Virus record (IMG/VR): IMGVR_UViG_3300045988_142058
Source: a virus
Taxonomy: Duplodnaviria > Heunggongvirae > Uroviricota > Caudoviricetes
Direction: 5' to 3' (one strand)
DNA: 47,591 bases
The notes beneath the pieces are model-generated. The model had not been told where the DNA came from. It ran no database searches and saw only the letters and a program-made list of their open reading frames with translations. Both the position numbers and the translations under genes were made by a program. Positions 37,179 to 43,041 of this stretch are shown here, piece after piece (position 1 is the stretch's first letter; each line of letters begins with the position of its first letter).

Positions 37179-37200
37179 AAAAAAGGCCCCCGAAGGGGCC
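37179..37200 (-). terminator. Intrinsic terminator for small-peptide transcript
   Basis: GGCCCC-cgaa-GGGGCC followed on minus RNA by UUUUUU; 7 nt after peptide stop. Confidence 0.6.
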
Positions 37201-37206
37201 TAATCG

Positions 37207-37329
37207 CTACTTGCTGCTAATGTTTATCGTCACATTCAGAGCGTTATCAGTAATCTTCCAACCCTCCCCATGTGGCGTAAACAAAGCTCCAGTAACAACG
37301 ATAAAAATACACATACAGTATTTTTTCAT
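37207..37329 (-). CDS. Small hydrophobic peptide (40 aa), candidate type I toxin
   Basis: MKKYCMCIFIVVTGALFTPHGEGW...; AAGGG RBS; intrinsic terminator immediately after stop; upstream leader carries 15-nt antisense target. Confidence 0.4.
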   Translation of the reverse strand: MKKYCMCIFIVVTGALFTPHGEGWKITDNALNVTINISSK

Positions 37330-37622
37330 TGTATGGCCCTTACAGGCCGTTTCACGGCATCCCCACCGACGAAAACAACGCGAGAGCAAGCACGGCTGCT
37401 TGTGCTTGCATGTACGGCAACAGGAAATCCTCCCCTAAAGTCGGTGCCCGGGTGCGAATCGGCGGGAAGGTCCACAGGTATTTTACGATTATTTTAAGAT
37501 TAGTAATAGGAAAGAAATTAAACGAAAAAAACAGTTTATTTTCACAAAATCAGTAACCTACCCACAATCTGTGAGTTTGCTGACACAACAAGAACCACAA
37601 TTTTTTGATGTATAATAGTGGA

Positions 37623-37787: not shown

Positions 37788-37900
37788 TGTCTCTGTTAAA
37801 ATCCCGCCGTATTGACATGAATGCGCCATTGGTGGACACTTTCCGAGCCGTAGCAAAATCTACGGTCGGGATTAGCCTCCTGAATAACACGATGGCGCAT

Positions 37901-37921
37901 ACCGCGTTAGCGGTTTTTTTA
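37901..37921 (+). terminator. Second intrinsic terminator in antirepressor leader
   Basis: ACCGC-gtta-GCGGT followed by TTTTTTT. Confidence 0.45.
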
Positions 37922-38082
37922 TGCGTAGAGCACTGTTACGCCCAAATTATGGTGGGTCGTACAGGGGCGGAGAAATCCGCGCCGGTTCGTCATTGTGTCC
38001 GGTAAGGCTAACCCTGTACGGCTCACCACCATTTGATTAGCCTCGAATGGCGGTGATAGTTCCATATACTGGAGATATCACA

Positions 38083-38274
38083 ATGACAAACCTACCCCAT
38101 GACTATTACGTCAACCTCGTAAAGATCCTTCTCAAGAAAGCCTCATACGCCGATAAATTCCGCCTGGCTGAAATCATCGAGCGCGAAGCTATGCGCATCG
38201 CCAGCAACGATAACGCTGTTTCTGACGCAAAAATCTCCCTCGTAACCAAAGTAGTTATGGGAGGTGCAAAATGA
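38083..38274 (+). CDS. Hypothetical small protein upstream of antirepressor
   Basis: 63 aa, GGAGA RBS, stop overlaps antirepressor ATG. Confidence 0.4.
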   Translation: MTNLPHDYYVNLVKILLKKASYADKFRLAEIIEREAMRIASNDNAVSDAKISLVTKVVMGGAK

Positions 38275-39452
38275 AAACGCTTCCGACCGTTAACACCCTA
38301 CAGCCTATCCTGCATAACCAGCTCCCCGTTATCACTACTGAACTACTGGCGCAATTGTATGGAACCGAGCGCCAACGTCTGACAAACAATTTCAATAGAA
38401 ACAAGGAACGTTTTATAGAAGGTAAACACTTTTTTAGGATAGAAGGTAAAGAGTTACGAGAGTTGAAGAACAAAAACTCTTTAAGAGTTCCTGTGAGAGT
38501 AGTTAACGAACCATCTTTAAGAGGGTTACAAATTCCCCCGAAAGTTCGCTCCCTCATCCTCTGGACAGAACGCGGGGCTGCACGTCACGCCAAAATGCTT
38601 GAAACTAACCAAGCGTGGGATGTGTTCGAACGGCTGGAAGACTGCTATTTCAACCAGAACGCACAAACGGCCGCGACCGTTACCGTCTCGCCAAGCAATG
38701 CTCGTGAGGTTGTCGATACGCTCAACGCCAAACCGATGTTTTACATTAAGGTGTGCAATAACGAGCCACTCACAACCTCAGCCGATGTTGCCCAGGCATT
38801 CAGCACCACAAACAATTCCATCGTTATGGCCATCGATGCGTTACGCATTCCTCGCACAGCTGCGGCGCGTCATTTCTTTAAAGAGCAACGACCGTTGGAA
38901 GGAAGCGACCGCGAAATAACAATCTATCGCATGACAAAAGACGGATTTACCTTGCTCATGGAGAGCATCGACGGTCCAAGCGTGAAAGATATCAAGCTGG
39001 CCTACATTGAAGCCTTTAACGCTATCAGCAGCGTGTTAAAAACACAGTACGAGCGTGATCTGGCTAAACGACTGTACCAAGAAAAAACGATTATCCGCGC
39101 GGCAACAGAGCATAATCGGCTATTAACGGAACCGAACTACAGGAAGGAACTAATCAAGGAGTTTGACAAGGCAACAGGGAAAACCAAAGCGGCGCTAAAT
39201 CTGCCAGCAATGACTCAGGAAAATGTGATATCAGCCTTACTTCTTGATCTGCTCAGAAACGCCAGAGCACTTATCAGCTTTGACGAAAACCTGAATCCTC
39301 AGCTCAAGCTACTACCACCGACAGGCAAAGTAGTCGACCAAGCTGATCACAACAGCATACTCAGCGTACTGGATGCAAACCTGCCAGCCAAGACACTACA
39401 GGATCTGATAAAAACATGTGCTGATAAGCTGGCACAGAAAAGCAGACCATAA
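38271..39452 (+). CDS. Antirepressor (ORF6N/ANT N-terminus, Rha-like C-terminus)
   Basis: 393 aa; N-terminal LPVITTELLAQLYGTERQRLTNNFNRNKERF; terminator after stop. Confidence 0.75.
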   Translation: MKTLPTVNTLQPILHNQLPVITTELLAQLYGTERQRLTNNFNRNKERFIEGKHFFRIEGKELRELKNKNSLRVPVRVVNEPSLRGLQIPPKVRSLILWTERGAARHAKMLETNQAWDVFERLEDCYFNQNAQTAATVTVSPSNAREVVDTLNAKPMFYIKVCNNEPLTTSADVAQAFSTTNNSIVMAIDALRIPRTAAARHFFKEQRPLEGSDREITIYRMTKDGFTLLMESIDGPSVKDIKLAYIEAFNAISSVLKTQYERDLAKRLYQEKTIIRAATEHNRLLTEPNYRKELIKEFDKATGKTKAALNLPAMTQENVISALLLDLLRNARALISFDENLNPQLKLLPPTGKVVDQADHNSILSVLDANLPAKTLQDLIKTCADKLAQKSRP

Positions 39453-39456
39453 CTAC

Positions 39457-39489
39457 AAGGGGCTACGGCCCCTTACTCTTTTCTCTCTT
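39457..39489 (+). terminator. Terminator after antirepressor
   Basis: 7-bp stem AAGGGGC/GCCCCTT then U-rich ACTCTTTTCTCTCTT. Confidence 0.55.
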
Positions 39490-39651
39490 ATCAACGCCAG
39501 AGACTTTCTGAAAATCCTTTCGAATAGCGTCAGCGTCACACGCCAAGCCCATACTGGAACGTGTCGCCATATGACGAAAATGATCAACTGCCGGAAACAA
39601 AGAAATAATGGACCCAATAGCTTGCAGCAAACTCGCTTTTCTACGCATCAT
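39463..39651 (-). CDS. Hypothetical small protein (62 aa), convergent with antirepressor
   Basis: ATGATG start with GGTGG RBS; otherwise unsupported. Confidence 0.25.
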   Translation of the reverse strand: MMRRKASLLQAIGSIISLFPAVDHFRHMATRSSMGLACDADAIRKDFQKVSGVDKREKSKGP

Positions 39652-40187
39652 AATTCCACCATAACTGATAACCACCCTTCAGACACAACCCCCCCTCCCC
39701 CCATACAGGGTGCCCTTTACCGGAGTTCCGGCCCCTTCTCAAAAGCATCAAAAAAAGCTCGAGATCGAGTACCGGAACTCATGCCACCAGATAGCTCCAC
39801 ATCGTTTCCAATGCTTCGCCGCCGTGTGCGCCCTGTGGCCCACAATCATGCCATTGGTCGTCTGATATACCTTCTTCTGCTCATAGAGCACAGGCGAGTT
39901 GTCGCACTCCTGCCTTTCTCAGACTCGACTTAGTTTAGATCGCTGTTCCTGGCTTGCGTCAGCACACTTTCCCCTTGTACGCATACCCGCGCGCCACTTC
40001 GCCCAAAAACACCGAACCCAACGAAGTGGCAAAGACAACGACGCGAGCGTGAGTCTGAAATGGGCACCAGTAAAAAAGGGGTTGCAGGCGCAAAAAGATT
40101 TGATTATCTTTAGACGCAAGAAAGCCGCCCCAATCAAGAGGTGTCTTTTTAAATCCAGCCTACCAAGCAAGATTTAAATTTCAGACT

Positions 40188-40220
40188 GAAAACCGCCCGG
40201 CAAGGCGGTTTTTGTCTTTC
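40188..40220. terminator. Bidirectional terminator downstream of HTH gene
   Basis: AAAACCGCC-cggcaa-GGCGGTTTTT with A-run before and T-run after. Confidence 0.55.
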
Positions 40221-40261
40221 TGGCGCTTACATTACACCACCATAAAACGATCCGTAAAGGA

Positions 40262-40534
40262 TCATTTGATCCCTTGTTCCAATTCTGACGACACTTTAAC
40301 CTTTTCCCATACAAGGGTTTGCAGCCTTAACAGAATCGCGTCTTTATCAAGGTGTGAAAGATCCTTCACCATATCGTCAAACGACAGAACGCGAATGGCC
40401 ATCTCAATGACCCTCGGCGGCTCCCCCTTCTCATATCGCTTATATGTAGCCAACGATATCCCAAATTCTTCGGCGGCTCGCTCCTGCGTCCAGTTCATCC
40501 CACGACGCCATAATTTCAATTCATAACCCGTCAT
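40262..40534 (-). CDS. XRE-family HTH DNA-binding protein
   Basis: Start at MTGYELKLWRRGMNWTQERAAEEFGISLATYKRYEKG with AGGAGG RBS; perfect IR upstream. Confidence 0.55.
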   Translation of the reverse strand: MTGYELKLWRRGMNWTQERAAEEFGISLATYKRYEKGEPPRVIEMAIRVLSFDDMVKDLSHLDKDAILLRLQTLVWEKVKVSSELEQGIK

Positions 40535-40563
40535 AGCACCCTCCTCGCACAATATTAACACTC

Positions 40564-40588
40564 GCAAAGTGTCAAAATGACACTTTGC
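40564..40588. promoter_or_regulatory. Perfect inverted repeat GCAAAGTGTCA-aaa-TGACACTTTGC
   Basis: 11-bp arms, ~25 nt upstream of RBS of HTH gene 40262..40534; no U-run. Confidence 0.4.
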
Positions 40589-40597
40589 GCATTGTGT

Positions 40598-42272: not shown

Positions 42273-42454
42273 GAAAAACGGGGCTATTTAACATAATGGA
42301 CGTTATCGGCACCACCGGATCACCGTTCATTGTCGGATCTAAAAAATCCGCTCAAAAGATCATGTTTTCCTGGGCGTTTTCCACCGTTTTTTATGTTGCT
42401 TATTTGTTAATGAAATCTCGTTTTCAGTTTCGCCTCATTTTCGACGCGAAAGCC

Positions 42455-42745: not shown

Positions 42746-43041
42746 ACATCTGTTTTGTTATCAATGAAGATTAACCCTAACCCAGCGAAGTAACACAGCA
42801 GCGCCCAGGCTGCATACGGAATGCTGGATCTGGATGTGGACTCCTTTAACATCTGCCAGTTGCGAACATTGCGACTATCTTTTAAGCCTAGTTTTTTGGC
42901 CAACTGCGAGCCGCTCATTCCGGTCAGGCCAATGACTGCCCGAACTTCTCCACATGTAGGAGATTCCCATTCATCCGCTTTTTTTAAACAAGCCGGATTC
43001 AACATTTTTAAAACAGTATCTTTATCCATAACCATCTCCAT
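42742..43041 (-). CDS. Putative HTH DNA-binding protein
   Basis: HTH-like GLTGMSGSQLAKKLGLKDSRNVRNW; hydrophobic C-terminus. Confidence 0.4.
   Translation of the reverse strand: MEMVMDKDTVLKMLNPACLKKADEWESPTCGEVRAVIGLTGMSGSQLAKKLGLKDSRNVRNWQMLKESTSRSSIPYAAWALLCYFAGLGLIFIDNKTDV

Follow-up and report, generated by a model that had tools for sequence, protein, structure and literature searches.

A conserved noncoding block of Escherichia coli phage-plasmids appears to be a highly diverged ColE1-type origin region

A noncoding block of 585 bp, which lies in an Escherichia coli phage-plasmid with the antirepressor gene on one side and a small HTH gene on the other, is shown by sequence comparison to be homologous to, and colinear with, the replication origins of the ColE1 family, from which it is very diverged. 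The block probably constitutes a functional origin module of the RNA II/RNA I type which branches deeply and is independent of a Rep protein; we assign a probability of roughly 0.7 to this reading.

The block and the element that carries it

The window, i.e. the whole stretch of 47,591 nt that was analyzed, represents the nearly complete genome of a 48-kb E. coli phage-plasmid. Its segment 39400–40300 was used as a query and found to be 100% identical over its entire length to plasmid pP136-7 (NZ_CP080230) and 98.9% identical to Yersinia phage vB_YpM_39. The gene content is that of a phage-plasmid with myovirus structural genes, an XRE repressor, ParA, a HigBA toxin-antitoxin pair and RepA; according to an Rfam scan, the immunity region consists of isrK/C4 antisense RNA and the antirepressor. 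RefSeq records leave the gap between the antirepressor and HTH genes blank, except for a 62-aa ORF at 39463–39651 present in some of them. All features which the original prediction had listed for this gap were recovered, with coordinates off by about 3 nt (Table 1). The C-rich tract is a C7TC6 run with a single occurrence in the window, the hairpin with a 9-bp stem, previously placed at 39996..40033, was relocated, and both inverted repeats are fully paired.

Table 1. Position of the block, its neighboring genes and its predicted elements within the window. Transcripts, promoters and RNA helices are predictions.
Feature	Position	Strand	Remarks
Antirepressor gene	38271–39452	+	left neighbor of the block
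Conserved noncoding module, apparently a diverged ColE1-type origin region	39683–40267 (limits approximate)		inherited as a unit; colinear with ColE1-family origins
G6AG7 tract (C7TC6 on the plus strand)	39689–39702	-	12–26 nt downstream of the predicted origin
Origin-proximal motif AAGGGGCCGGAACTCCGGTAAAG/GGCACC (slash, predicted RNA-to-DNA switch at ~39715/39714)	39709–39736	-	aligns with ColE1 GGGGGGCGGAGCCTATGGAAAAA/CGCC
Long-range helix 39709–39714/40063–40068	39709–40068	-	joins the hub to the predicted-origin segment; moderate support
Predicted RNA II-like preprimer, 507 nt	39715–40221	-	ends placed by alignment to ColE1; transcript inferred
Hairpin GAGTTCCGG/CCGGAACTC (arms 39723–39731/39772–39780)	39723–39780	-	9/9 bp; just upstream of the predicted origin
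Hairpin with fast-evolving 9-bp stem (39993–40001/40022–40030) and invariant 20-nt loop (40002–40021), CCCAAAAACACYGAACCCAA on the plus strand	39993–40030	-	variant comparison
Long-range helix 40052–40061/40178–40187	40052–40187	-	10/10 bp in the window
RNA I-like promoter TTGCAG, 17 nt, TATCTT	40082–40110	+	hexamers and 17-nt spacing kept in six variants
RNA I-like antisense RNA, about 100 nt, 5' tail and three stem-loops	~40118–40220	+	predicted start; terminator and fold
RNA II-like (primer) promoter	40229–40263	-	kept in six variants; aligns with the ColE1 primer promoter GGATCTTCTTGAGATCC...GTAATCT
Small HTH gene, 90 aa	40262–40534	-	right neighbor of the block

The limits of the block were drawn from an alignment of ten distinct variants. 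The edges are sharp, and these variants show five kinds of left flank and two kinds of right flank. Comparison of the E. coli and Salmonella types revealed 85–89% identity for the block, 67–78% for the flanking genes, 71% for the HTH protein and 76% for the repA region. Both strands of the block fold better than all shuffled sequences (z-scores of -3.3 and -4.0), i.e. better than expected by chance. Furthermore, the block is indeed poor in ORFs: all ORFs of at least 12 aa were checked across 7–10 variants, and none was conserved. In relatives, they contain stops or frameshifts or show mostly non-synonymous change, and substitutions within the block have no 3-base periodicity. The only intact small ORFs comprise 12 codons (arginine-rich) and 50 codons, the latter being broken in the divergent homologue L029 and evolving non-synonymously. 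This 50-aa plus-strand ORF has no similarity to the spurious 'replication initiation protein' ORF annotated by PGAP in ColE1.

The block was found in 62 PLSDB records (58 Escherichia, 3 Salmonella, 1 Klebsiella). repA likewise occurs in 62 records with the same split among genera, and every PLSDB plasmid of this phage-plasmid family (62/62) carries the block. Among 5426 complete E. coli genomes, 72 (about 1%) have it on a phage-plasmid. Searching phage and plasmid collections by blastn (word size 11) recovered only the same phage-plasmid family. Exact-pattern scans of viral, genome and metagenome collections with five conserved motifs yielded one divergent homologue and several close variants; other matches of 19–21 nt were chance terminator look-alikes. 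The 'pSLy3' group (about 114 kb) is a family distinct from this one.

The divergent homologue (L029/L063/L064; IMGVR_UViG_3300036772_000110) shares 65–69% identity with the block and is located in an unrelated phage backbone. The L029 contig of 39.9 kb is circular, with overlapping ends, and belongs to an Enc34-like PolA phage encoding a DUF2800 nuclease, an Enc34-type SSB, a family-A DNA polymerase, a VRR-NUC nuclease, an SNF2 helicase, MazEF and a ParA-like protein. In this second, unrelated phage, the block sits between a tail-fibre gene and the partition region; it is not bound to the 'HTH operon' named in the original prediction. No Rep initiator was seen within the 24 kb of L029 examined. 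L029 is a candidate phage-plasmid whose only plasmid origin would be the ColE1-type block. Elements carrying the block measure ~40 kb (the L029 contig) or 44.5–52 kb, with one deletion derivative of 32 kb; they are non-mobilisable.

To the left of the block lies a variable cargo slot (39453–39682 in the window), which is either empty or filled with unrelated accessory genes on the minus strand. These encode the 62-aa ORF, membrane proteins of 150–230 aa or a 53-aa zinc-ribbon protein (in L004, L006, L029, L036, L047 and the window). The junction of the slot is located directly after the G6AG7 tract and may be a recombination hotspot. Natural deletion variants were observed in two metagenome contigs (L042:254–797 and L047:2424–2995); 51 nt are missing from L042 (39985–40035), comprising the whole variable-stem hairpin, and 22 nt from L047 (39907–39928). 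Additionally, an imperfect 16-nt direct repeat (39649–39664, CATAATTCCACCATAA; 40230–40245, CATTACACCACCATAA; 13/16 identical) brackets the block, one copy being located in the cargo flank and the other over the -10 region of the primer promoter. It may be due to chance or represent a recombination scar.

The RepA replicon of the element is complete and accompanied by DnaA boxes, a ParA system, toxin-antitoxin genes and an Xer site. DnaA boxes were located at 42946, 43022 and 43533, in a gap downstream of repA which is probably the RepA-dependent oriV; one of them is a perfect TTATCCACA. An unannotated dif/cer-like site at ~42286–42313 on the minus strand (GGTGCCGATAA-CGTCCA-TTATGTTAAAT; two mismatches to dif) probably serves the plasmid prophage for resolving multimers. 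Between the HTH gene and a gene encoding 126 aa, a perfect 12-bp palindrome (CGCAAAGTGTCA-AAA-TGACACTTTGCG, 40563–40589) overlaps a TTGACA hexamer. It has no second copy within 38–45 kb and probably serves as the autoregulatory operator of the HTH protein. Thousands of relatives of the 90-aa HTH protein, with 35–53% identity, are encoded on conjugative plasmids (3303 of 3782 tblastn hits); on IncL/M-type plasmids, they adjoin a restriction-endonuclease-like gene. Searches with the neighboring HTH and ParA proteins revealed no further contexts for the block, and distant HTH relatives were found without synteny.

Further noncoding RNAs were detected by Rfam outside the block. An unannotated full-length match to ryfA (37179–37475, minus strand; 143 bits, E = 5e-37) is located in a 1.1-kb gap with parA/parB-like genes on one side and the immunity RNAs on the other. 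ryfA-type RNAs of enterobacteria encode a small type I toxin. isrK (66 bits) and C4 antisense RNA (71 bits) are arranged in tandem at 37847–38033 on the plus strand and are followed directly by a 63-aa ORF and the gene of the ORF6N/Rha antirepressor; this arrangement is an RNA-based immI region in the style of P1, P7 and P4. A C4, isrK or P4-CI immunity RNA was also considered for the block itself, and it was rejected because RF01695 and RF01394 match 37847–38033 upstream of ant and not the block.

Predicted RNAs and similarity to ColE1-family origins

A lenient sigma-70 scan was carried out across six variants. Only two promoter-like sites were kept in all six; they are convergent, about 105 bp apart, and both are weak matches to the consensus (7/12). 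The primer promoter on the minus strand consists of TTTACG-18-TAATGT (40258–40229), with the -10 hexamer TAATGT running from 40234 to 40229. An inverted repeat, GATCC-GTAAA-GGATC (40249–40263), covers its -35 region and contains two GATC sites 11 bp apart. In the RNA I-like promoter, the spacer sequence is divergent in L029. The start of the putative preprimer (A40221) and its 3' processing point (~39715) were placed by reference to the +1 of ColE1 RNA II and to its GGAAAAA/CGCC switch. A minus-strand transcript from the primer promoter would cover the short plus-strand RNA entirely and then run leftward through the block.

The third stem-loop of the RNA I-like RNA is an intrinsic terminator (stem 40187–40214), which lies just ahead of the point where the opposing transcript would start. 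The 'bidirectional terminator' proposed earlier was thus supported for the plus strand, where a T run follows the stem; on the minus strand only four U follow and no terminator was scored, nor did the terminator scan score any other minus-strand terminator within the block. The fold of the RNA I-like RNA has a z-score of -3.3. When six variants were folded separately, each gave the three stem-loops, and stem-loop 2 showed compensatory changes. Differences between lineages are located in the three loops (40133–36, 40153–80 and 40199), while the stems are invariant. No trans targets of the variable loops were found within the window. Judged from its sequence, the block thus comprises the promoters, terminator and folds of a putative cis-antisense RNA pair. 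The prediction of one or more noncoding RNAs was therefore correct in kind, although the pair had not been recognized as being of the ColE1 RNA II/RNA I type.

Because of this two-RNA architecture, the block was compared with ColE1 (NC_001371) and eight ColE1-family origins from PLSDB. A profile HMM of the block matched the ColE1-like origin of CP057351 over positions 41–589 (E = 2e-9, 26.7 bits) and that of CP035011 over positions 42–588 (E = 5e-6). Matches in the other family members lay at either the promoter or the origin end or at both (E = 4e-8 to 1.5); both ends were matched at E < 0.1 in all of them except ColE1 and L072. All matches reaching past the palindromic first hairpin have one orientation and are colinear, the minus strand of the block corresponding to RNA II. 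A convincing alignment of the central ~300 nt was obtained for only two of the nine members. Reciprocally, an HMM of the nine-member family matched all ten block variants (E = 1e-6 to 4e-5), and in a blind scan of the whole window its only significant match was 40186–40284 on the minus strand (E = 3.9e-5). In shuffle controls, 0 of 1000 sequences exceeded 2.2 or 3.8 bits, and 0 of 400 shuffled ColE1 sequences gave any match.

Similarity extends to single elements. The distance from the GATC repeat to 15 nt beyond the origin amounts to 565–601 nt in the block variants and 568–615 nt in ColE1 plasmids. The inverted repeat over the -35 region reads GGATCTTCTTGAGATCC in ColE1 and GATCCTTTACGGATC in the block, both having the form GATC-N7-GATC, and the -10 elements GTAATCT (ColE1) and GTAATGT (block) have GTAAT in common. 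The first hairpin consists of an A-run followed by ACCGCC..GGCGGTTT in ColE1 and is the same in the block (ACCGCC/GGCGG). The internal motifs AGAGCGCAC and GGGTTTCG of ColE1 correspond to AGGGCGCAC and GAGTTCCG in the block, the latter being GGGTTCCG in the Salmonella types and L029. At the origin, both share the motif GGGGCC..GGTAAAG.

Global identity between the block and ColE1 origins is only 45–50%; hence, the block is missed by blastn, Rfam RNAI and MOB-suite typing. Gathering-threshold and E-value scans of the block with Rfam gave no match reaching a family threshold. With the RNAI model (RF00106), the block scored 18.1 bits as compared to a gathering score of 47 and to 73.8 bits for ColE1 itself; it therefore falls outside the curated RNAI family as now defined.

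Following Ares-Arroyo et al. 2021, plasmids are regarded as ColE1-like on the basis of profile-HMM homology in the ori region from the promoter of RNA II up to oriV, and such homology was detected here. Furthermore, ColE1-like replicons have ~550 nt and no Rep ORF between the RNA II promoter and the RNA-DNA switch; in the block, the predicted distance is 507 nt (40221 to 39715) and no ORF is conserved. An antisense RNA is indicated by the conserved promoter and terminator together with the three-stem-loop fold in six variants. ColE1-type systems have an RNA II of ~550 nt and an RNA I of ~100 nt with three stem-loops (PMC8683028), dimensions with which the block agrees. The context differs: instead of a small multicopy mobilisable plasmid, often with Rop, the carriers are phage-plasmids with RepA, ParA and toxin-antitoxin genes, and no Rop/Rom gene is annotated in the element.

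Comparison of the paired positions across related elements revealed compensatory changes in several helices. The stem of the variable-stem hairpin occurs in three classes with 8–9 of 9 bp paired (GCCACTTCG/CGAAGTGGC, GCTATCTCG/CGAGACAGC and TTTTTACCG/CGGTAAAAA) and a fourth class (L003, L015) with partial pairing (6–7 of 9 bp); in the metagenomic variant L042 the hairpin is deleted. Through the helix 40052–40061/40178–40187, the 5' end of the RNA II-like RNA, which the antisense RNA covers, is connected with a 'hub' further downstream. L029 substitutes GAACTAG/CTAGTTC for this helix, and T40054C in the Salmonella types gives a G.U pair on the minus strand and C.A on the plus strand. The duplex 39709–14/40063–68 is kept in all variants, G39710-C40067 being replaced by A-T in L029, and its partner ranks within the best one to five sites of each variant. 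The arms of hairpin 39723–39780 are nearly invariant; L029 has a 22-nt insertion in the loop, and a change at 39779 gives a G.U pair on the minus strand only. A compensatory change was also found in 39783–87/39835–39. The column-wise covariation scan was affected by misaligned indels. Two candidate helices, I1 (39906–26/40051–71) and I3 (39678–87/40050–59), were rejected as they are not conserved in L029.

The G6AG7 tract is invariant in length in nine of ten variants and unique in the window; the conserved block stops about 6 nt beyond it. Its core, GGGGGAGGGGGGGTT, is identical to that of human mtDNA CSB II, where a hybrid G-quadruplex/R-loop ends transcription and creates a replication primer (PMC4176368). 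In both cases, the tract is located on the non-template strand of a transcript thought to prime leading-strand synthesis, but here it lies just downstream of the predicted, ColE1-aligned origin. This likeness is convergence and not homology. The aligned ColE1-family origins have no counterpart of the tract, so its role is conjectural; from its position on the non-template strand of the predicted preprimer, we infer that it may stall RNA polymerase and stabilise the hybrid.

Proposed function and alternative explanations

By analogy with ColE1-like replicons, whose replication requires host RNA polymerase, RNase H and DNA polymerase I but no plasmid protein, transcription, priming, copy control and the role of the G-tract can be envisaged as follows. 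A minus-strand RNA II-like preprimer would start at ~40221, extend leftward for ~507 nt and form a persistent RNA-DNA hybrid at the G-rich origin-proximal motif (~39715–39736). RNase H would then cut the hybrid, and DNA polymerase I would extend the primer leftward. The RNA I-like RNA would bind, loop to loop, to the initial ~100 nt of the preprimer and alter its fold; the covarying long-range helices that connect the 5' end, the hub and the origin segment could serve as the path. Refolding would block primer formation and thus set copy number and incompatibility, and lineages would fall into separate groups of specificity owing to the differences concentrated in their loops. Furthermore, firing would be linked to Dam methylation by the pair of GATC sites covering the -35 region, and the lineage-specific G6AG7 tract past the origin would probably stall or terminate RNA polymerase and stabilise the R-loop, like the CSB II core.

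The element also has a complete RepA replicon, and the module may therefore be used in lytic or high-copy replication or provide a second origin for maintenance; in PolA phage L029, it is possibly the origin of the plasmid state. The G+C skew does not change sign anywhere on the 48-kb element. This agrees with a leftward leading strand but does not tell the two origins apart. RepA, ParA, toxin-antitoxin genes and the Xer site are the make-up of a low-copy plasmid; therefore, an origin of the multicopy type is unexpected, and the ColE1-type module may be silent in lysogeny or changed in function.

A more specific version, to which we give only tentative credit, is a functional phage origin working through a CSB II-type G6AG7 tract: transcription would stall there, and a hybrid G-quadruplex/R-loop would hand the primer to a family-A polymerase, either host Pol I or the PolA of L029. 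If true, this would be a bacterial or phage counterpart of mitochondrial primer formation and a portable Rep-free 'plug-in' origin swapped between unrelated phage-plasmids, with RNA I loop variants defining groups of phage incompatibility and superinfection.

The block could also be derived from a ColE1 origin and yet not initiate replication, having been kept as an antisense-RNA regulatory or exclusion module. Such a module might act against related elements entering the cell or against ColE1 plasmids already resident, or the RNA II-derived transcript might have been co-opted as a regulated long leader or terminator. The homology to ColE1 origins would fit here too, the element has its own RepA origin, the G6AG7 tract could simply terminate a long RNA, and the natural variants L042 and L047 carry internal deletions. 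We nevertheless consider this explanation unlikely: the whole 585 bp are conserved, including the motif aligned with the ColE1 RNase H/Pol I switch, which an exclusion RNA would not need, and the 24 kb of L029 examined contain no Rep initiator.

Co-directional ORFs begin 15–50 nt past the block in the window and L047 (62 aa), in L004, L036 and L006 (membrane proteins of 150–230 aa) and in L029 (53-aa zinc ribbon), and the block has no internal minus-strand terminator, as would be expected of an antisense-controlled 5' leader for variable minus-strand accessory ('moron') genes. This is quite improbable, since the block is equally conserved without cargo (in L003, L040 and L042, only about 20 nt separate it from the end of the antirepressor gene), the cargo proteins are mutually unrelated, and the homology to ColE1 origins would be left unexplained.

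The recombination or binding site suggested in the original prediction would imply a cluster of protein-binding DNA sites, i.e. a centromere, an operator array, an Xer resolution site or a packaging site. Several inverted repeats and five copies of TCAGAC in the block would fit; however, most of these copies are not kept in L029, where their partners co-vary as RNA helices. Iterons, DnaA boxes, IHF sites and a copy of the HTH operator palindrome were not found in the block. The DnaA boxes of the plasmid are located elsewhere, and a search for an Xer site (cer/dif/psi; XerC arm, 6–8 bp spacer, XerD arm TTATGTTAAAT) found the only good one of the window at ~42286–42313. Hence, a protein-binding cluster is very improbable.

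A type I toxin-antitoxin locus of the hok/sok type, with a structured toxin mRNA and a short antisense RNA, is hardly credible despite a similar size (about 580 bp), a 5'-overlapping antisense RNA and long-range pairing, as the long RNA contains no conserved small toxin ORF and no Rfam toxin or antitoxin RNA family comes near its gathering score, the only such matches being ohsC (14.4 bits vs 50) and AgrB (13.8 vs 40) with E-values of 5–7 over the terminator hairpin.

Known systems and significance of a ColE1-type origin in phage-plasmids

The preferred reading, a ColE1-type RNA II/RNA I origin module, places the block closest to ColE1, pMB1 and p15A. It shares with them full-length profile homology and the order and spacing of elements, with about 570 nt from promoter repeat to origin. 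GATC-N7-GATC at the primer promoter, the GTAAT -10 element and a first hairpin doubling as RNA I terminator are likewise common to both, as are an antisense RNA of ~100 nt with a 5' tail and three stem-loops, a G-rich origin-proximal motif followed by an A-run, and the lack of a Rep gene inside. In contrast to the ColE1 family, the block resides in phage genomes of 40–49 kb and not in small mobilisable plasmids, has just 45–50% identity, stands alongside a RepA replicon and is not accompanied by an annotated Rop/Rom gene; it adds the G6AG7 tract and the variable-stem hairpin with its invariant 20-nt loop. Hence, it represents a ColE1-like lineage that branches deeply and resides in a host element where it was not expected; the G6AG7 tract is its one new component.

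Next to its immI region, phage P1 has a lytic replicon, P53-kilA-repL, with the antisense transcript P53as and the replication protein RepL. The two systems are alike in having an antisense-controlled replication module just beyond the c4/ant immunity region; they differ in that P1 uses the RepL protein, and its replicon has no sequence relationship to the block. The MRB plasmid origins of Vibrionaceae lack Rep, comprise ~500–700 bp without ORFs and produce two partly complementary RNAs (PMC3035462), as predicted for the block. Their RNA I loops determine incompatibility, which renders related origins compatible (PMC3035462). MRB RNA I, however, has ~68 nt, and the conserved MRB RNA I core of ~110 bp has two stem-loops, as against three in the block; a blastn search of PLSDB with the block returned no Vibrio plasmids. 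Extrachromosomal prophages of mycobacteriophages have transcribed, RNA-based origins beside parABS which contain no protein-coding gene (PMC7157519) and thus provide a precedent for a plasmid-prophage origin of this kind. Those elements have actinobacterial hosts and no RepA, whereas the E. coli element combines an RNA-type block with RepA; the two are likened by description, and homology is not expected.

In the literature, we found no paper on the block or on ColE1-type origins in phage-plasmids. As replicon typing tools, Rfam and annotation are all blank on the block, about 1% of complete E. coli genomes apparently carry an unrecognized origin of the ColE1 type. The known sequence space of the ColE1 family is thereby extended far past current profiles, and the same module moves between unrelated phage backbones. 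The tract identical to CSB II offers a tractable bacterial system for studying R-loop and primer formation driven by a G-tract. If active, the block would provide these phages with a second, protein-independent mode of replication; it would then matter for copy number and induction, for the incompatibility of these phages with common ColE1 plasmids and with cloning vectors, and for how their cargo genes spread.
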